Virus record (IMG/VR): IMGVR_UViG_3300032287_003123
Span: 1,147-65,146 of that record
Length of the DNA stretch: 64,000 nt
Direction: 5' to 3' (one strand)
DNA from: a virus
Lineage: Duplodnaviria > Caudoviricetes
Of this stretch, positions 2,273 through 44,574 are shown one piece after another; the first letter of the stretch is position 1, and the number at the start of each line of letters is the position of its first letter. The notes below the pieces were generated by a model, which saw nothing but the letters and a program-made list of their open reading frames with translations, ran no database searches and was not told the DNA's origin. Made by a program: the position numbers and the translations under genes.

Positions 2273-2300
2273 CAGCCTGGGTACGCTGATAAACTGCCCA
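2273..2300 (+). ncRNA. small H-type pseudoknot element upstream of endolysin
   Basis: CAGC-CTGGGTAC-GCTG-ATAAAC-TGCCCA; compensatory variant of the CTGAGCA/TGCTCA family. Confidence 0.6.
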
Positions 2301-15791: not shown

Positions 15792-15794
15792 AAG

Positions 15795-15866
15795 TACCCC
15801 TGGCAGGACTTGAACCTGCGACCTACACCTTAGAAGGGTGTCACTCTTCCACTGAGTTACAGAGGT
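15795..15866 (-). tRNA. tRNA-Arg(UCU)
   Basis: anticodon arm ACACC-CTTCTAA-GGTGT; GGTTCAA T-loop; acceptor stem pairs. Confidence 0.9.
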
Positions 15867-15867
15867 T

Positions 15868-15942
15868 TGGAGCCTTCTGTCAGGATTGAACTGACGACAT
15901 CTCGCTTACAAGGCGAGTACTCTACCACTGAGTTAAGAAGGC
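15868..15942 (-). tRNA. tRNA-Thr(UGU), CCA encoded
   Basis: CTCGC-CTTGTAA-GCGAG anticodon arm. Confidence 0.92.
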
Positions 15943-15943
15943 G

Positions 15944-16015
15944 CATCTCCAGAGAGAATTGAACTCTCGTTTACACCGTGAAAGGGTGTTGTCCTAACCA
16001 CTAGACGATGGAGAC
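15944..16015 (-). tRNA. tRNA-Glu(UUC)
   Basis: ACACC-CTTTCAC-GGTGT anticodon arm. Confidence 0.9.
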
Positions 16016-16016
16016 T

Positions 16017-16092
16017 TGGCTGGTCTGGCAGGCTACGATCCTGCGACTTCCGAATTAACAGTTCGGCACTCTACCAACTGAGTTACAGACCA
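16017..16092 (-). tRNA. tRNA-Asn(GUU), CCA encoded
   Basis: CCGAA-CTGTTAA-TTCGG anticodon arm. Confidence 0.9.
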
Positions 16093-16096
16093 ATAG

Positions 16097-16170
16097 TACA
16101 ACAGGTAGGACTTGAACCTACGATAACCGAATTATGAGTTCGGGGCCTTGACCAACTTGGCTACTGTTGC
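16097..16170 (-). tRNA. tRNA with CAU anticodon (Met or Ile2)
   Basis: CCGAA-CTCATAA-TTCGG anticodon arm. Confidence 0.85.
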
Positions 16171-23066: not shown

Positions 23067-23122
23067 GGTTTGTTATTCTAATGGGGTTTATTACTATAGG
23101 GATTGGGATCTATTCTAAAAGT

Positions 23123-23250
23123 CCCGTGATTTTTTCTGAAGGGTTCGTAAAGGGTTATTGACAGAAATGGTTTGATGTGGTATGATCCCCGTGAATTTTT
23201 GCGAGGGGTTCGTAAAGTCCCGTGATTTTTTTTAGAGGGTTCGTAAAGGG
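23123..23250. repeat. three ~30-bp direct repeats CCCGTGAWTTTTT-N5-6-GGGTTCGTAAAG
   Basis: copies at about 23123, 23188 and 23219. Confidence 0.8.
23158..23186 (+). promoter_or_regulatory. consensus sigma-A promoter with no downstream ORF
   Basis: TTGACA-17-TATGAT with TG extended -10. Confidence 0.65.
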
Positions 23251-26465: not shown

Positions 26466-26537
26466 AAATAGTCCTCAGAAATATCATGATTTTTTCGACC
26501 CGCATTTTTATGCATTGCATTGCATTTTTATTTATTG

Positions 26538-26611
26538 CGATCCGTACGGGACTTGAACCCGTGACCTCTACCGTGACAGGGTAGCGAACTAACCAACTAT
26601 TCTAACGGACC
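26538..26611 (-). tRNA. tRNA-Asp(GUC)
   Basis: CTACC-CTGTCAC-GGTAG anticodon arm; GGTTCAAGTCC T-arm. Confidence 0.92.
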
Positions 26612-26616
26612 AAATG

Positions 26617-26647
26617 GTGAGCAGTTTTAATTCATGCTCAGGAAATT
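26617..26647 (-). ncRNA. H-type pseudoknot element between DUF932 stop and tRNA-Asp
   Basis: AATTTC-CTGAGCAT-GAATT-AAAAC-TGCTCAC. Confidence 0.6.
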
Positions 26648-26650
26648 GTA

Positions 26651-27667
26651 TCATGCTAGTTGCATAACATTCTGCACAACTTTTAGCAGACGATTTTTTT
26701 CTGCGTTGATAGCAGGGTCAAATCCACTTGCACTTGCAAGGATAGATTCGTTATTGCCACCACGAGCAGAACGGTACCAGTCTAGGCGCTCAGTAAGTGC
26801 ATTGAAAGCGCCCCATGCAGAGCCAGCAATCATGCCGTTAAATTCGCCAGTGTAAATATCGTTGATAATATCAACTTTATTTTCCCACTTCTTGACCGCA
26901 CCCTTAGCGTCCTTCTCAGGCTTAGGATAAGCAGCAAGAATGATGTCGTTGAATTGCTTAGCAGAAACTTCTTTCTCAATCATAGCCTTAGCCATAATAT
27001 CAAATTCGTCCATGTAAGTATTAGCAAGACCAAGAGTCTCACGAGCAATCTGCACTTTACCATTGGCAGTCTGCGTGTGGCGAATCTTGAATGATTGCTT
27101 GACACCATTCTTCTTCTTGCGTGAGCCTAGTGCAAGATTAAGAGTGTTAGCGCACACTACACGAACGGGTGTAATGCTTGCTTGAATAGCGATTGAGCCA
27201 TCGTGTGATGTGTTGATGAGCAAATAAGTCTTTACCTTATCTGCAACACCGCTAGGGTCTAGGATTGTTTCACGCTCTAATGCAAGAGAGCCGAATACAA
27301 CACGACCACCCTTGATTGCGCCTGCGGTTTCCCAACGACCACCGCCGTCTAGGATATTATCACCGAATGAGAATAAATCTTCATTCTGCAATACATGATA
27401 GCGCTCACCAACGACACCAAGAATATCAGTCTGGGTGTTATCGGTAGGATTTGTACGCAAAACATATTGGTATGCCTTGTCGCTAGTTAGATGTGATGGG
27501 GTTTCCAAATCCTCTAAGCGAACATTCCAACCGTTTAGATTTGCTGCTTCCAACATTTCTGCGGTTGTTTTTTCCTCAGTGAATACGGTACCCAATCCAT
27601 GCCATGCTGGTTCACGGAAAGATGCAAAAGATGTCTTACCGTTTTGTGTTTCTAGGTCATGTGCCAT
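26651..27667 (-). CDS. DUF932 / TIGR03299 phage-plasmid protein
   Basis: MAH...PAWHGLG, LGVVGERY..LQN, WETAG, NTSHDGS, RVVCANTL. Confidence 0.88.
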   Translation of the reverse strand: MAHDLETQNGKTSFASFREPAWHGLGTVFTEEKTTAEMLEAANLNGWNVRLEDLETPSHLTSDKAYQYVLRTNPTDNTQTDILGVVGERYHVLQNEDLFSFGDNILDGGGRWETAGAIKGGRVVFGSLALERETILDPSGVADKVKTYLLINTSHDGSIAIQASITPVRVVCANTLNLALGSRKKKNGVKQSFKIRHTQTANGKVQIARETLGLANTYMDEFDIMAKAMIEKEVSAKQFNDIILAAYPKPEKDAKGAVKKWENKVDIINDIYTGEFNGMIAGSAWGAFNALTERLDWYRSARGGNNESILASASGFDPAINAEKNRLLKVVQNVMQLA

Positions 27668-27697
27668 GAGTGTTTCTCCTTTTTGTTTGTTTATACA

Positions 27698-27726
27698 ATC
27701 ATAACATGACCCACCGACAAATGCAA
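27698..27726 (-). promoter_or_regulatory. promoter TTGCAT-T-TGTCGG-N10-TATGAT (perfect PafBC/RecA-NDp match)
   Basis: directly upstream of the DUF932 gene. Confidence 0.75.
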
Positions 27727-27829
27727 ATCAGGATAGTTAAATAGGGGTAAATCGGACATTTTGGGGGTGTGATCAATATCACGTAATCGTAACTTGACAA
27801 TGACTGGTCATTCGGGTCGAAAAATTTAT

Positions 27830-27993
27830 TAAGCCTTTTTCCATCATGCTTAGGATGTATGGGTTCTTACACCTGCCCAATAAGGTGGCTCTATAGTATT
27901 TCTATTATCGCCCTAATCAGCCTGGCGAAAAGTGAGCAGTTTACGTGGCCGTGCTCAGGGCCCTTACCTAGTTTATAGACATTCGGCATGTCT
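27830..27993 (-). ncRNA. tandem array of five small H-type pseudoknots
   Basis: five consecutive stem-loop + A-rich linker + loop-complement units (see findings). Confidence 0.6.
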
Positions 27994-28013
27994 TTTCATA
28001 GCCCCCTATGAAA

Positions 28014-28433
28014 TTAGTAGTCAACCTCGTCATAGTTAGTATCTACAACGTTTGAATCTTCATTCATGAGTTCAACGTGATATGAATTTACATTGAATTC
28101 AATTGTTGACAATATGTCATCAATGTCTTCACCTGATTCAACACATATGGTAAATGTATGGTCTACGGTCATAGTAACGTCATAGTTTTGTGATAACGTG
28201 AAGTCGCCAATCTTTGCAAGCGCTTGGGCCTGCTCCATGGAGATATTCTCTTCATTAAGTTCACTGCGGGTCCAGTCCTTTAGATCTTCCTTAAGTCTAT
28301 TAAGTGCTGCTGCAGTGTTCATGTCCCGCTGTGCAAGACGTGCATGTGATTCTTCTAGTTGAGTAATACGCAATGTGGCCTTGGCCAATTCATCACGTAG
28401 AAATGTCTCTGTTGCGTAGTTTACTGTATCCAT
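28014..28433 (-). CDS. hypothetical coiled-coil protein
   Basis: ORF track. Confidence 0.6.
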   Translation of the reverse strand: MDTVNYATETFLRDELAKATLRITQLEESHARLAQRDMNTAAALNRLKEDLKDWTRSELNEENISMEQAQALAKIGDFTLSQNYDVTMTVDHTFTICVESGEDIDDILSTIEFNVNSYHVELMNEDSNVVDTNYDEVDY

Positions 28434-28438
28434 AGGGG

Positions 28439-28702
28439 TTATTCCATTTCTTTCTCTAGTTGTTCAAATTCTTTGATGGTATTAATCATCTCATCCATTT
28501 GGTCTTTTGTCAAGCACACATTTGATACTAGTGTGGCAGTAAGTGAGGCAAGGTGAGCAGAATAACTCCAAATTGCCTCAATGAATTCTTGTTCTGTCAT
28601 TGATTCACGATGTTCGCTAATCTTTTTTGCCATTAGCATTGTGCTGAAGTCTGTAACTGCGTCGCCAGTTGCTTCTTGAATTTGTATTGCGGTGGATAGC
28701 AT
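28439..28702 (-). CDS. hypothetical protein
   Basis: downstream of promoter 28732-28760. Confidence 0.6.
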   Translation of the reverse strand: MLSTAIQIQEATGDAVTDFSTMLMAKKISEHRESMTEQEFIEAIWSYSAHLASLTATLVSNVCLTKDQMDEMINTIKEFEQLEKEME

Positions 28703-28847
28703 GAGGGCCTCTTTCTTTTTGGTTTAATATAAGTATATATCTCAGGACTGACAAATGCAATTTAAAACCCCGTGAATCTTAAATAGTGAGACGTAAACCA
28801 TGTGAGAAAGATCACACGGGTCGAAAAATTTTTGCGGGGAATTTATA

Positions 28848-28875
28848 GAGCAGTTTTACATCATGCTCAGGATGT
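28848..28875 (-). ncRNA. H-type pseudoknot element
   Basis: ACATC-CTGAGCAT-GATGT-AAAAC-TGCTC just after stop of ORF 28880. Confidence 0.65.
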
Positions 28876-28879
28876 TTAA

Positions 28880-29050
28880 TTACTTAGATGTTTTTACCAT
28901 TGCAAAGCGGTGTGCGCCGTTTGCTAACTGTAATGAAACTCTAGTTAGTTTAGCGTTGATAGGAGTAAAGTTGCTAATGCGACCTGTAATTCCTGTCTTG
29001 CTTGTTGTGAATAGATCACCGATTTGGTAAGTGTATCCGCCTAGTGTCAT
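28880..29050 (-). CDS. small SH3/KOW-like beta protein (not in track)
   Basis: MTLGGYTYQIGDLFTTSKTGITGRI...; RBS GAAAGG; paralog of 29700-29861. Confidence 0.65.
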   Translation of the reverse strand: MTLGGYTYQIGDLFTTSKTGITGRISNFTPINAKLTRVSLQLANGAHRFAMVKTSK

Positions 29051-29088: not shown

Positions 29089-29118
29089 TGAGCAGTTTTA
29101 GTTGTCATACTCAGGACA
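29089..29118 (-). ncRNA. H-type pseudoknot element
   Basis: TGTC-CTGAGTAT-GACA-ACTAAAAC-TGCTCA. Confidence 0.6.
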
Positions 29119-29133: not shown

Positions 29134-29559
29134 TTATAGGTATCGTGCTACCGCATTGTATGTGGAAGTATTAACTACTTCCTCATCTGTCATCTTGAGG
29201 ATACGAATTGCGTTAGCAATTTCCTCTTTCTGACTTTGGTAGTCGTGTGAGTGTAGAACTACATAGTCTTTTGTTGGCTCTGCTGGCAGTTCCTTTTCTG
29301 ATACTGCTAGGTCAAAGTCAATGTTTAGGTTGTTGTTCCAAGAACGATATGAAGTGCGGAAGTTGGTTGCCTTCTTGATGTTTGCTACCGCATAGTCAAT
29401 AAGTTCCTTCTTATACTTCTCATAAGCCTTCTGATACTTTGCTTCATTGGCTTCTTGTGATGTCCAATCAAGTTCTAGTTTGGCAAGTGCGCCTTCTAGT
29501 GCCTTGATTACTTTAGGTGTAGCGATTTTAACGCTAATTGCTTTTCCTCTTGTTGCCAT
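29134..29559 (-). CDS. hypothetical protein
   Basis: RBS AAGGAG before MATRGK. Confidence 0.65.
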   Translation of the reverse strand: MATRGKAISVKIATPKVIKALEGALAKLELDWTSQEANEAKYQKAYEKYKKELIDYAVANIKKATNFRTSYRSWNNNLNIDFDLAVSEKELPAEPTKDYVVLHSHDYQSQKEEIANAIRILKMTDEEVVNTSTYNAVARYL

Positions 29560-29699
29560 TTTTTTGCTCTCTTTTCTTTGGTGGTTGATATTTATTATAG
29601 GGGGTGGAACTGACATTTCCCCCGAAGGGGGGAGAGTTCTTACTTACGACATTGGGCTAGAACACTCTCCTAAACTGCCCCTGTTTCGCTATGAAAGGC

Positions 29700-31947: not shown

Positions 31948-32366
31948 TAGTTATAGGTTCCTTTACATTCTGAGCAGAGATAATTAATTTTGCAGTAGCA
32001 ACCTACGGCAGTAGGCATATCAGTTTCATAGTAGTCATCATAGTAGGTCATTAGTTAGCCTCTTTCGTTAAGAATAGTTGGTCAATATAAGCATATTCTA
32101 TCATCGCTTCTACCTCTCGGTCAAGGTAGCAACGGAAGCAATAGAGTTCAGTTACATCTACTGCATTTTCATTACACTGCAAGCATACATCGGTCATGGG
32201 AGCCTTCTTTCTTTAATTAACTTGATATAAATATCTTATCAGGTTGGGGTGACATTTGCAATTCCGTAATCGGGCAATTTGGACAAGGTTCCCGTGATTA
32301 ATATCACATCGTACGTAACTTGTGGATAACCTGTGGACGACACGCCCGACTGCGGGTCGAAAATTT

Positions 32367-32395
32367 TGAGCAGTTTTAGATCTTGCTCAGGATTT
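32367..32395 (-). ncRNA. H-type pseudoknot element
   Basis: AAATC-CTGAGCAA-GATCT-AAAAC-TGCTCA right after a stop codon. Confidence 0.6.
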
Positions 32396-32890
32396 TTATT
32401 TATTTCTTTAGTCGTTCACTTCTCAATGCAATTTGCAATCTGCGAATTTCTTTTTGTTGTGCAATATTTTGTTTCCAAAACACACCCATTACAAAAAGAG
32501 AACTGAAAAGTGCAATTGTTATTCCGATTAGTGTTCCAGTGTCTAGAATCATTTTATACTCCCTTTTCACATGCCTCAATAAACTTATCACGTTTGAAGT
32601 TTGGATTGTCTTCTTCAAACATAATTGCGAAATCATTTACCAAATCTTCCCACCAAAAGTTATCTATCATGGCTTGATGATAACCTGCAAGAATATCGGC
32701 GACCTTTACATAGTCTTTACGTGTCATCATTATAGTGCCACCAATTTTTCTACATAGTTTGAGATTTGATTATATGCGTTAGCGCATTTGTAGCAATAAG
32801 TTTCGGTAGGAATACCACCAAGCATAAAGGCATCAGTTCCCGAATAAACTAATTCGGTAGATTCGCAATTTATTACTTTACATTGAGTCA

Positions 32891-40542: not shown

Positions 40543-42087
40543 ATGGCACGGTTTACCCAAGCAGGTGGATCAGGTTCAGGAGAACCAGGACCACAAGGAC
40601 CATCAGGTAATGATGGTACAAACGGTGCAGATGGTTTAGATTCACTATTTCTTGGTACATGGAATAGCGTAACTGAATTTCTTGCAATATATCAGGGTGG
40701 TCCAGTAGGTTTAGCAGATGGTGATTGGTGGGCTTTTGTAAAAGATAACACTGATCCAAATAAAGTTTATGTAGTTCGTGAAGATCCTAATTCTGCAACT
40801 GGTTGGGTAATTGATGATAACGAAAGTTTTGTTTTACCTCAAGGTGAAGCAGGTGCAGATGGAGCAGATGGAGAAAATGGTACAGACGCACTATGGGATT
40901 ACCTTGGAGAATATAACGGCGGAGTAATATATGGGGCTGGAGCAGTTGTTACATACGATGGACAACTTTGGTATAGAAATGTTTATACATCTGCTGGATA
41001 TGTTCCTGGTGTTGGAAATACTTATTGGGATTTGCTTGCAGCAAAAGGTGCAGATGGTGCTGATGGAGCACAAGGCGACCCTGGCAGTCCAGGACTTGTT
41101 TATCTAGGAAATTATGTTTCAGGTAATGGATACATTGCAAACATTGCTGTTGTAAAAGGAAGCGATAACAATCTTTACATAGCAAAATCAAGTGGTGGAT
41201 TAGGAGATCCAGTTGGAAATAGTGCAGAGTGGAGCATATTCCTTCCAAAGGGTGTTGATGGAGAAGATGCAGTTCTTCCACAAGATTTAGGAACAACAGA
41301 CAGCCCAACGTTTAGCAAGATTACACTTACAAGTAACGGGGAAATAGATAATATCACAATTGGCGATGATGTACTTATTGGTGATGGAAATATTGCAAAC
41401 CACTTAGTAATTGTTGGAAATCAAGATTCAACACAAGGTGGAATTGTTCTTGGTGACAATAAAACTGAACAAGTTTCATCAGATGGGTCAAACCTTTCTT
41501 TAGATGCAGACAATGATATTATTCTTAATCCAGGAAGCACATATGCATATATTGGTACACCAACTATAGGTGGAGAAACAAGAATTGCTACTTGGGATTA
41601 TGTAAACGACACAATTAATACTGGGAGATACGGTGCATCAGCATCATTCTTTAGCACTGTAGACCAAGGTCCACAAGGGTCTGCTGACACTGTTCAGGCA
41701 TTTACATTTAACAATACAGACTGGGCAACAGGAATTACTCTTGCAAGCACTAGCAGAGTAACAATGACAAATGCTGGAAAATATAACATTGCATTTTCTG
41801 CTCAACTATACCAAACAAACAATACTGGAAATGTAAACATATGGCTAAACAAAAACGGTAGCCCAGTAGCAAACACAAACACAAAGGTTAGTATGAACTC
41901 TAATAACCACTACCTTGTTGCTGCTTGGAACTTCTTTGTAAATTCTAATGCTAATGATTATTACGAACTTATGTGGTCTTCATCTAGCACAAATACTTCT
42001 ATACAGTATGATCCAGAGGTTACAATTAATGGAAATGTTCATCCAGCAATACCTTCAATTATTTTGACGGTAAACCAAGTTGGTTAA
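40543..42087 (+). CDS. tail fibre / collagen-repeat protein with C1q-like C-terminus
   Basis: Gly-X-Y stretches, carbohydrate-binding-like repeats, AGKYNIAFSAQ. Confidence 0.7.
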   Translation: MARFTQAGGSGSGEPGPQGPSGNDGTNGADGLDSLFLGTWNSVTEFLAIYQGGPVGLADGDWWAFVKDNTDPNKVYVVREDPNSATGWVIDDNESFVLPQGEAGADGADGENGTDALWDYLGEYNGGVIYGAGAVVTYDGQLWYRNVYTSAGYVPGVGNTYWDLLAAKGADGADGAQGDPGSPGLVYLGNYVSGNGYIANIAVVKGSDNNLYIAKSSGGLGDPVGNSAEWSIFLPKGVDGEDAVLPQDLGTTDSPTFSKITLTSNGEIDNITIGDDVLIGDGNIANHLVIVGNQDSTQGGIVLGDNKTEQVSSDGSNLSLDADNDIILNPGSTYAYIGTPTIGGETRIATWDYVNDTINTGRYGASASFFSTVDQGPQGSADTVQAFTFNNTDWATGITLASTSRVTMTNAGKYNIAFSAQLYQTNNTGNVNIWLNKNGSPVANTNTKVSMNSNNHYLVAAWNFFVNSNANDYYELMWSSSSTNTSIQYDPEVTINGNVHPAIPSIILTVNQVG

Positions 42088-43854: not shown

Positions 43855-44574
43855 ATGGCAATATCTAAAAGTATGGATTCTCCAATTAAAAAATCAACCT
43901 ATGCCTCTAAGGTAGAAGATTCTCAATATTCAGAAAATACATTATCTTTTTTGCCAGTACCAGGACCACAAGGGCCTCAAGGTCCAAGAGGTGAACAAGG
44001 TCCCCAAGGAATACAGGGCCTCACTGGAGAAAAGGGTGAGCAAGGAAAACCAGGTAAAGATGGAAAAAATGGGGTTGATGGAAAAAGTGTTTTATCTCCA
44101 TCAGAACAGCAAATAGGGTGGGGTTACTATGAAAATATATCACCAATTCAAAAAAGAACTGGCATAGATCAAGGACAAGATGGGTGGGTTACACTATACA
44201 TAAATAATGTTGGTGGCAATACAAACGAAAAATTTTTGCCAAAAGGCAATGTTTCTTTGTGGAATTCAACCACAAGAAAATTTAACTTTAAAACCTTAAA
44301 TATTGGTTCAATTATAACAATTCGTTATAATTTTATACTGACTACATATTCTAATAACACAGAGGTATGGCTAAAAACACTTTTATCTGAAGACTCTATT
44401 TCACCAATTTCTTATGTTGGAAACTTAAAATATCAGTACGACTATGAACTTTCTGTTGATCAAAAAATATTCATGCACGATCAAAAGGTTCAAAATTTTG
44501 GAGGAATACCTCAAGTAAGGACTGACAATCCGTGTGAAGTGGTTCTTGCGTCAGTATACATATCGGTTTCATGA
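43855..44574 (+). CDS. collagen-repeat virion protein
   Basis: about 14 Gly-X-Y triplets. Confidence 0.75.
   Translation: MAISKSMDSPIKKSTYASKVEDSQYSENTLSFLPVPGPQGPQGPRGEQGPQGIQGLTGEKGEQGKPGKDGKNGVDGKSVLSPSEQQIGWGYYENISPIQKRTGIDQGQDGWVTLYINNVGGNTNEKFLPKGNVSLWNSTTRKFNFKTLNIGSIITIRYNFILTTYSNNTEVWLKTLLSEDSISPISYVGNLKYQYDYELSVDQKIFMHDQKVQNFGGIPQVRTDNPCEVVLASVYISVS

Follow-up and report, generated by a model that had tools for sequence, protein, structure and literature searches.

The analysis of a stretch of 64,000 nucleotides (nt) from an uncultured freshwater phage of the Caudoviricetes (IMG/VR record IMGVR_UViG_3300032287_003123), referred to here as the window, revealed that positions 27993–27830 on the minus strand are a genuine tandem array of at least four H-type RNA pseudoknots together with an invariant box, a conclusion that is comparatively well supported. 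The array lies behind an open reading frame (ORF) named ORF139, inside a 346-nt gap between this ORF and a gene encoding a DUF932 protein. It comprises five units, a to e (Table 1). Units b and e are members of a broad family of gene-end pseudoknots, units a and d are lineage-specific knots sharing the topology of this main family, and unit c is the box (c-box). The knots may act as cis-acting 3´-end caps blocking 3´-to-5´ exoribonucleases, a reading to which a probability of about 40% is assigned.

Pseudoknots of the Array

The original prediction, made from the letters alone, described five different pseudoknots placed back to back, each with a stem, a loop, an A-rich linker and a complement to the loop. 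The letters and the minus-strand placement were as it gave them. Covariation in related phages, assessed against shuffled and slid controls, is the decisive line of evidence and backs units a, b, d and e as H-type pseudoknots, whereas the fold drawn for unit c comes without covariation. The related phages are represented by 80 loci retrieved with the DUF932 protein.

In unit a, a stem 1 of 4 base pairs (bp) and a stem 2 of 3 bp are both 100% paired in 19 sequences, with compensating changes: stem 1 reads GGAC/GUCC in one relative, while stem 2 shows GU/AU/GC and CG/UA/UG. The knot predicted for this unit is real, although in the same 19 sequences the two inner stem-1 pairs that had been drawn are not kept and the proposed TAGGTA partner is not supported. 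Both stems of unit d are 100% paired in 13 distinct relatives, with 6 of the 9 pairs changing on both sides; at least eight stem-1 sequences and four stem-2 sequences occur, always paired. The alignment of this unit omits four sequences, including the window's own subtype, which MAFFT set one column out of register; they pair too when inspected by eye (CACCT/AGGTG or CAGT/ACTG, with TGGG/CCCA). Copies of the unit b type covary in relatives (GGAC/GUCC), and the core of unit e (UAAGCA ... GGCUUA) carries a compensating G–C to A–U change in comparison with GAGC/GCUC, its last pair being lost. The small hairpin that had been noticed ahead of the array also covaries, being 100% paired in 19 sequences with 2 pairs changed on both sides.

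A strict scan (stem 1 with 4 or more Watson–Crick pairs, loop of 5–11, linker of 4–9, and a stem 2 in which the loop takes part in 4 or more pairs) found three non-overlapping knots in the 164 nt of the array, corresponding to b, d and e. Three knots were reached by 2 of 1000 dinucleotide shuffles and by 3 of the 390 other 164-nt minus-strand tiles. Nested folding of the array is unremarkable (z of −0.52 on the minus and −0.46 on the plus strand), as expected for pseudoknots, which this type of folding does not see. A looser structural regular expression, accepting any stem–linker–complement arrangement, was discarded as too noisy. Tandem Repeats Finder returned 0 rows for positions 27600–28100 at a minimum score of 30, and the five units differ in sequence.

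The Gene-End Pseudoknot Family

A repeat finder tied unit e to three other intergenic sites of the window (repeat family D5), and the alignment of these sites with unit b provided the consensus of the main family, a motif of about 27 nt (xyC-C-UGAGCA-W-Gy'x'-NNNAAAC-UGCUCA). Its fold consists of a stem 1 of 3–4 bp, a 1-nt loop (C), a stem 2 formed by UGAGCA/UGCUCA, 1 junction nucleotide and a 7-nt linker ending in AAAC. The covariance model held stem 2 only, the pairing of stem 1 being absent from it. Seven copies are found in the window: six on the minus strand at E ≤ 5e-6 and a weak one on the plus strand.

The model produced 239 hits at E ≤ 0.01 in the 80 related loci, and 239 out of 239 lie on the gene strand. 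In the 150 best hits, 98 of them distinct, pairing of stem 1 reaches 100% even though two of its pairs vary, one as UA/AU/GC/CG and the other as UA/AU/CG; for stem 2 the figure is 96.6%, and three pairs show double changes. None of 500 shuffles matched the observed percentage paired, the cells with changes on both sides or the covariation score, and no slid register came close. The five complete relatives, with genomes of 111–119 kilobases (kb), carry 4–9 hits each at E ≤ 0.01, the stronger ones being clustered in about 6–8 kb.

The family extends well beyond these phages. An exact-pattern scan of one genome per prokaryote species located it in at least 118 bacterial and archaeal records from many phyla, the carriers listed including Saccharibacteria, Clostridia, Bacteroidota, Proteobacteria, Actinobacteria, cyanobacteria and two Methanobrevibacter records; all genome-locus counts given here (118 loci, with 129 or 119 copies) are among the matches listed. 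Stem 1 is complementary at both variable pairs in all 207 distinct phage-locus copies and in 119 of the 129 genome-locus copies, against a chance expectation of about 14%; the 10 exceptions include some that seem to be accidental matches within genes. The linker measures 7 nt in 172 of 207 phage-locus and 103 of 119 genome-locus copies.

Short BLAST searches also find the knot in cultured phages, four of them confirmed by reading. In Mycobacterium phage Labelle it lies 6 nt past the TAA of gene 85, in Lactobacillus phage phiAQ113 it is followed by a U-run, in cyanophage S-RIM4 it was confirmed by reading, and in a crAss-like phage its stem 2 is doubly compensated. As a separate observation, an annotated transfer-messenger RNA (tmRNA) of crAss-like phage cr7_1 (L320; NC_055895.1, 20629–20985) includes the knot and overlaps a transfer RNA (tRNA) gene, tRNA-Cys; the tmRNA call may be an artefact.

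No neighbour protein family is common to more than 8 of the 118 genome loci. Among 10 representative neighbours, Pfam recognized Replic_Relax, a serine recombinase, DUF3768, DUF932, a glutamine amidotransferase and a valyl-tRNA synthetase, four neighbours having no confident match; the relaxase, serine recombinase, DUF3768 and DUF932 proteins point to mobile elements. In three genome contigs (L120, L121 and L195), exact knot copies sit between direct repeats that resemble, by eye, arrays of clustered regularly interspaced short palindromic repeats (CRISPR), which suggests spacers acquired from motif-bearing elements. The family has no match in Rfam 15 and no name in the literature searched, although the supplementary motif lists of PMC10690425 and PMC5737381, which run to thousands of motifs, may hold it.

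Position behind Stop Codons and Downstream Elements

In the last 120 nt upstream of the knot, an ORF of at least 40 amino acids comes to its end in 192 of the 207 copies from phage loci and in 104 of the 129 from genome loci. In the phage loci, the length of the spacer between the stop codon and stem 1 sets in abruptly at 6 nt (17 copies at 6 nt and 12 at 7 nt, with 4 copies closer), and the genome loci show 19, 15 and 7 copies at 6, 7 and 8 nt, respectively, with 4 closer. The tail of the spacer distribution reaches more than 100 nt, and all three stop codons precede knots. No comparable tie to a downstream gene is seen, as only 42 of the 118 genome loci have a same-strand ORF beginning within 150 nt behind the knot. 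In the array, units a and b lie 20–50 nt past the stop codon of ORF139 and unit e about 155 nt past it. Readthrough or frameshifting was considered and rejected, as the frame closes after 7–8 codons in three window copies with 5–6-nt spacers.

Behind the knots, elements able to make a 3´ end are found in part of the copies. A tRNA-Asp begins 2–8 nt behind 75 of 293 phage-locus copies, and a tRNA begins 3 nt behind 3 of the 125 genome copies listed. A U-run follows 22 of 207 phage-locus and 13 of 119 genome-locus copies, compared with 4 and 3 in a shifted control (about 11% versus 2–4%). Mimicry of a tRNA acceptor (CCA end) was rejected as a family feature; CCA is present mainly in the pre-tRNA-Asp copies of this lineage and not in the genome set.

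The DUF2800 RNA (RF02960) begins 1 nt behind the knot in five Clostridia-type loci, and in a sixth this RNA is cut off at the contig end. In L105, L117, L150, L152, L170 and L178, knot and DUF2800 RNA may form one larger unit. In another locus (L090, a contig from a Polynucleobacter metagenome-assembled genome), the letters of a hammerhead core can be recognized by eye directly behind the knot; the type III hammerhead scored by Rfam is a different copy, about 200 nt upstream on the same strand.

In the window and in its relatives, the knots lie upstream of the promoter-like site of the next gene, which would make them part of the upstream transcript; the array would then be transcribed within the ORF139 message, in the early region. 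Lake metatranscriptome contigs from relatives (mostly below 95% identity) cover the DUF932 gene and part of units c and d, a weak sign of transcription, with DNA carry-over being possible. The four lake RNA runs hold 0.05–0.10 of the words of the stretch, as contigs that display neither RNA ends nor strand. Contig ends falling at knots were not taken as real ends, given that dispersed repeats produce such ends in assembly, and nothing was drawn from them or from the uncovered parts.

The c-Box and the Modular Origin of the Array

Unit c stands apart from the knots. Hardly any variation is seen among its 29 distinct sequences in the 80 loci, or among the 94 distinct contexts provided by at least 119 additional IMG/VR contigs. 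Its hairpin never varies, and a second possible hairpin shows single, uncompensated changes. The AGCC segment that had been taken as the loop partner is present in only 6 of the 29 distinct relatives. Neither covariation nor an Rfam match was obtained for the c-box. Complete genomes carry 0–2 copies, and 2 of the 5 have none; a role as promoter for a phage single-subunit RNA polymerase was discarded as unsupported on these counts. A search for PF00940 gave no match in the 5 complete relatives, the controls of that search being equally silent.

Among the IMG/VR contigs listed (at least 119), the c-box is always followed by 0–2 variable pseudoknots and then by a main-family knot. Different modules precede it in different relatives. 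In 8 of the 94 distinct contexts a main-family knot stands directly before it; 64 of the 94 have a predicted hairpin ahead and 22 have neither, although this hairpin criterion had no control and is not used as support. An extra knot type is inserted between the c-box and the d-type knot in four relatives (L023, L027, L041 and L062, at about 2096–2130), pairing GUAU/AUAC or CGAU/AUCG with UCGCA/UGCGA and using UUAAAU or UGAAAU as linker; the arrays there therefore reach three knots behind the c-box.

BLAST comparison of the gap with the 80 loci showed a mosaic. Its first 86 nt (hairpin, a and b) and the next ~110 nt (c, d and e) lie 500–1000 nt apart in relatives, each part following a different ORF, and the breakpoint is exactly at the end of unit b. 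In those relatives, the e-type module begins with the c-box 7 to ~100 nt from the stop codon of the other ORF. The array was thus formed by the juxtaposition of two 3´ untranslated region (UTR) modules, hairpin + a + b and c-box + d + e. Since the c-box is found directly behind a main-family knot in other relatives too, this juxtaposition is recurrent.

Proposed Function and Alternative Explanations

Covariation, the orientation on the sense strand, the tie to stop codons and the 3´-end-making elements right behind the knots lead us to infer a 3´-end cap. The knot would begin just beyond the stretch covered by a ribosome that sits on the stop codon, so that it would stay folded. It could then work as a mechanical cap in cis that halts 3´-to-5´ exoribonucleases and fixes a stable 3´ end for the upstream message, this end being made directly downstream through U-run termination, an RNase P cut at the adjacent tRNA or other processing. 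Different knots in series would offer redundancy without repeated sequence. A nuclease-resistant RNA was one of the options of the original prediction; it is the one that fits best, and it is compatible with the cap proposal.

Several points weigh against such a cap. No U-run follows about 89% of the copies, and for the majority no processing site is known either. Across phyla, stem 2, loop 1 and the AAAC segment keep their letters more strictly than a simple roadblock seems to need, and this conservation could reflect a specific partner, be it the ribosome, a nuclease or some other protein. With a stem 1 of just 3–4 pairs, the knot must owe its stability to tertiary contacts. Nor does a cap account for the 42-nt c-box that lies amid the knots. 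The promoter assignments rely on consensus matches no commoner than in shuffles (6 found, 6.4 expected) and on conservation between cassettes.

In a wider and more speculative version, considered rather doubtful, the knot would be the prokaryotic and phage counterpart of viral exoribonuclease-resistant RNAs (xrRNAs): a portable element that stops processive degrading enzymes or ribosomes in organisms ranging from Actinobacteria to methanogens, spread by mobile elements as a universal cap. The arrays would be layered armour for the early transcripts of phages, and the c-box a docking or processing site that organises them.

The knot might instead oppose decay from the other side, as a barrier to RNase J or to the 5´-end-dependent scanning of RNase E that shields the downstream RNA in the way xrRNAs do against Xrn1. 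Its topology and A-rich linker recall small xrRNAs, and the linker of unit a (AUAAACUAGG) resembles the coremin spacer (GUUAAACUAC) as given in PMC10520033. The same-strand ORF starts found within 150 nt behind the knot in 42 of the 118 genome loci would also suit this reading. Against it, in 39 loci there is either a convergent gene end (14) or no ORF (25). RNase P severs the 5´ end of a tRNA from the RNA upstream, and a tRNA 2–8 nt behind the knot would be cut off from it. The gene that follows the array in the window is preceded by a promoter-like site of its own, located about 100 nt behind unit e. Moreover, the sharp spacing rule concerns the upstream stop codon and not a downstream start, and protection in the 5´-to-3´ direction is regarded as unlikely.

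Equally unlikely is a role linked to translation, in which a ribosome at the stop codon would have the knot at its messenger RNA (mRNA) entry channel, and the knot would tune termination or recycling, or insulate cistrons from post-termination ribosomes. The 6-nt onset of the spacer, seen in two independent data sets, matches the spacing of frameshift and readthrough knots, and letters kept across bacteria and archaea would be expected if the partner were universal, as the ribosome is. In vitro, coremin-type motifs are able to halt scanning ribosomes (PMC10520033). However, a spacer tail beyond 100 nt means that contact with the terminating ribosome is not obligatory, and units a and b themselves lie 20–50 nt past the stop codon of ORF139. 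The use of all three stops, combined with the rapid closure of the frame in window copies, would leave readthrough without a product.

The first idea of the original prediction, a panel of decoy RNAs imitating type III antitoxins, belongs to a broader class of explanations in which the knots are protein-binding sites or decoys, for example pseudo-antitoxins that soak up a defence endoribonuclease. Type III antitoxins (ToxI, AntiQ) are tandem ~34–36-nt copies of one unit placed beside the gene of an endoribonuclease, which cuts them. The likeness lies in short RNA units able to form pseudoknots and in the phage connection. A binding role would agree with the sequence-specific conservation of stem 2, loop 1 and linker, with the several copies per genome clustered in the early region, and with the copies in CRISPR-like arrays, which show that hosts meet the motif on invaders. 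In contrast to the antitoxins, the array does not repeat any one unit in tandem, its units all differing from each other, and members of the family are scattered behind genes that are unrelated, no neighbour protein family recurring in more than 8 of the 118 genome loci. No family of Rfam 15, antitoxin or other, matches the array. As for a ToxN- or AbiQ-type neighbour, the genes flanking the array are the DUF932 gene and ORF139, in a record rated 59% complete; PF13958 (ToxN family) has no match in the 65-kb record, a weak negative, since 14 control genomes were equally silent. A strict post-stop placement is unnecessary for a decoy, and the many phyla and two Methanobrevibacter records argue against the partner of a single defence system. 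The antitoxin panel is not borne out, and protein binding or decoy activity in general is judged quite improbable; that the family of the two strongest units follows the stops of unrelated genes across phyla points to a general cis-acting role in the message.

A transcription signal, with the knot replacing the hairpin of an intrinsic terminator or acting as an RNA polymerase pause or antitermination RNA, is still harder to accept. The U-runs, several-fold over the shifted controls and exemplified by phage phiAQ113, would suit it, and so would the location of the knots between a gene end and the next promoter-like site. Yet most copies have no U-run, a terminator scan of positions 26500–29000 returned 0 terminator-like sites, and many copies lie 5–40 nt ahead of the next start codon inside apparent operons. 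Lastly, although the mosaic breakpoint at the end of unit b and the changing modules ahead of the c-box could suggest a DNA-level element (recombination junctions that shuffle cassettes, or single-stranded DNA folds), compensating changes in two interleaved helices, complete co-orientation and the stop spacing rule point to the transcript, and the shuffling of modules is more simply explained as a side effect of having dispersed repeats, making this option extremely unlikely.

Comparison with Known RNA Elements

If the knots are 3´-end caps, the closest functional analogy is the small coremin-type xrRNA. As described in PMC10520033, coremin (xrRNA-C) occurs in plant and fungal RNA viruses, measures about 30–45 nt and, from its place in 3´ UTRs or intergenic regions, obstructs a processive enzyme. 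A resemblance exists between its spacer GUUAAACUAC and the linkers of unit a (AUAAACUAG) and of the main family (UAAAACUG); for AUAAACUAGG of unit a the likeness is 7 of 10 by eye, without statistics, and the stem-1 hairpin of unit b follows 4 nt later. However, the coremin of PMC10520033 depends on a YGAD or YGNNAD loop and on a further hairpin placed directly after a conserved spacer of 8–10 nt; the enzyme it stops is Xrn1, which is eukaryotic and works 5´-to-3´, and it is not depicted as an H-type knot. Unit a has instead a 9-nt loop (AUGCCGAAU), and the main-family loops read CUGAGCAW. The hosts differ as well, being eukaryotic for coremin and prokaryotic here.

Compact H-type knots are known from the gene 32 leader of T-even phages and from luteovirus frameshift sites, with a 1-nt loop over a stem 2 of 6–7 bp and an A-rich third loop. 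The gene-end knots share their topology and loop lengths, and the third loop likely docks in the minor groove of stem 1. Nevertheless, those knots are located in 5´ leaders or coding overlaps and serve gp32 binding or frameshifting, whereas the knots of the array lie behind stop codons with no alternative frame. The preQ1-I riboswitch, a pseudoknot of ~30 nt whose A-rich tail pairs with a hairpin loop, is similar in size and topology. It acts in leaders, hiding a ribosome-binding site, and needs a ligand-pairing C; the gene-end knot has no Rfam match, stands behind genes, and has a 1-nt junction loop that leaves no room for such a residue.

Known stabilisers of bacterial and phage 3´ ends include terminator hairpins, REP elements and the RNase III-cut hairpins of T7 early RNA. 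They resemble the knots in the job proposed here at the 3´ end of a message, close behind the stop codon and between genes of an early unit. However, they are simple or irregular hairpins and lineage-specific, while the gene-end knot is a sequence-conserved pseudoknot found across phyla. Units b and e do not display the G+C-rich hairpin plus U-run of an intrinsic terminator. The upstream pseudoknot domain in the 3´ UTR of tobamoviruses, eukaryotic RNA viruses, precedes a tRNA-like end and binds a translation factor; it also has several different pseudoknots back to back, a likeness of architecture. With respect to the rest of the gene-end family, the array stands out because a single 3´ UTR contains two members, among which two further knot types and the invariant box are placed.

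Genomic Setting of the Array

The IMG/VR virus record, most of which is covered by the window, is 65 kb long with a completeness rating of 59%. Rfam matches in it are six tRNAs only, and the 346-nt gap has no Rfam 15 match at the gathering score, nor at E ≤ 10 apart from small nucleolar RNA and microRNA noise. When the 1.9-kb neighbourhood was compared with GenBank phages by BLAST, no close relative appeared; the single distant match is to a Streptomyces phage, within the DUF932 gene. ORF139 matched no Pfam or PHROG family. A 32-amino-acid ORF (27891–27989) was rejected as coding, as its ATG sits in the loop of unit a and is missing from many relatives.

The ordered elements of the cassette half downstream of the array are repeated behind the main-family copies at 28869 and 32389. 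The three cassettes (27698–27824, 28726–28847 and 32230–32366, all on the minus strand) share a T-run with CGACCCG, a covarying variable hairpin, GTTACG, a palindrome of the GTGAT-N4-ATCAC type and the promoter-like hexamers TTGCAW-17-TAWRMT.

Table 1. Coordinates of the array, the main-family copies and the neighbouring features in the window.
Feature	Position	Strand	Description
Post-stop hairpin	27996–28011	−	6 bp, GGGG loop; begins 2 nt past the stop codon
Unit a	27966–27993	−	Pseudoknot; stem 1 AGAC/GUCU, linker AUAAACUA, stem 2 GCC/GGU
Unit b	27933–27962	−	Main-family pseudoknot; stem 1 GGCC/GGCC, stem 2 UGAGCA/UGCUCA, 8-nt linker ending in AAAC; followed by CUUUUC; 40.4 bits, holding by construction (training sequence)
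Unit c (c-box)	27888–27929	−	Nearly invariant 42-nt box
Unit d	27860–27887	−	Pseudoknot; stem 1 CACCU/AGGUG, linker UAAGAA, stem 2 UGGG/CCCA
Unit e	27830–27857	−	Main-family pseudoknot; stem 1 CAUC/GAUG, stem 2 UAAGC/GCUUA, linker GAAAAAG; repeat family D5; followed by AAUAAAUUUUU; 48.6 bits, holding by construction (training sequence)
Downstream cassette half	27698–27824	−	T-run + CGACCCG, variable hairpin, GTTACG, palindrome GTGAT-N4-ATCAC, promoter-like TTGCAT-17-TATGAT of the DUF932 gene
Main-family copy	26618–26644	−	6 nt past the TGA of the DUF932 gene, ~6 nt before tRNA-Asp; 51.8 bits, training sequence
Main-family copy	28848–28874	−	5 nt past the TAA of ORF 28880–29050; 57.9 bits, training sequence
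Main-family copy	29089–29117	−	GUC/GAC; UGAGUA/UGCUCA; 16 nt past the stop of ORF 29134–29616; 34.1 bits, not a training sequence
Main-family copy	32367–32393	−	6 nt past the TAA of ORF 32400–32636; 55.9 bits, training sequence
Divergent main-family copy	2274–2300	+	AGC/GCU; UGGGUA/UGCCCA, compensated; between two plus-strand ORFs; 21.4 bits, E 0.008
ORF139	28014–28433	−	Gene upstream of the array, which lies in its 3´ UTR; stop TAA 28016–28014; from the ORF list
DUF932 gene	26651–27667	−	Downstream of the array; query that retrieved the 80 related loci
tRNA-Asp	26537–26611	−	Directly behind the main-family copy 26618–26644; from Rfam

Other features of the window were also recorded. Five tRNA genes (Arg, Thr, Glu, Asn and Met) are clustered at 15794–16170 on the minus strand. 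A 42-nt direct repeat (repeat family D8) occurs three times at 23113–23250 on the plus strand, in a region without long ORFs. Short-period repeats with a 9-nt spacing, at 40564–41084 and 43956–44081 on the plus strand, may encode Gly-X-Y (collagen-like) stretches in large plus-strand genes.

Biological Significance

Whatever its function, the gene-end pseudoknot is a structured RNA family with unusually strong comparative support, a broad distribution and several cultured carriers. The array shows that knots of a single topology but unrelated sequence stand in for one another and are strung together, and that the knots travel as modules together with an invariant 42-nt box. If the knots do act as 3´-end caps, the family would be a very small, sequence-defined RNA stability element working across distant prokaryotes. 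It would bear on the early gene expression of phages and conjugative elements in hostile cells, and it would provide a compact part for controlling the life-time of mRNA.

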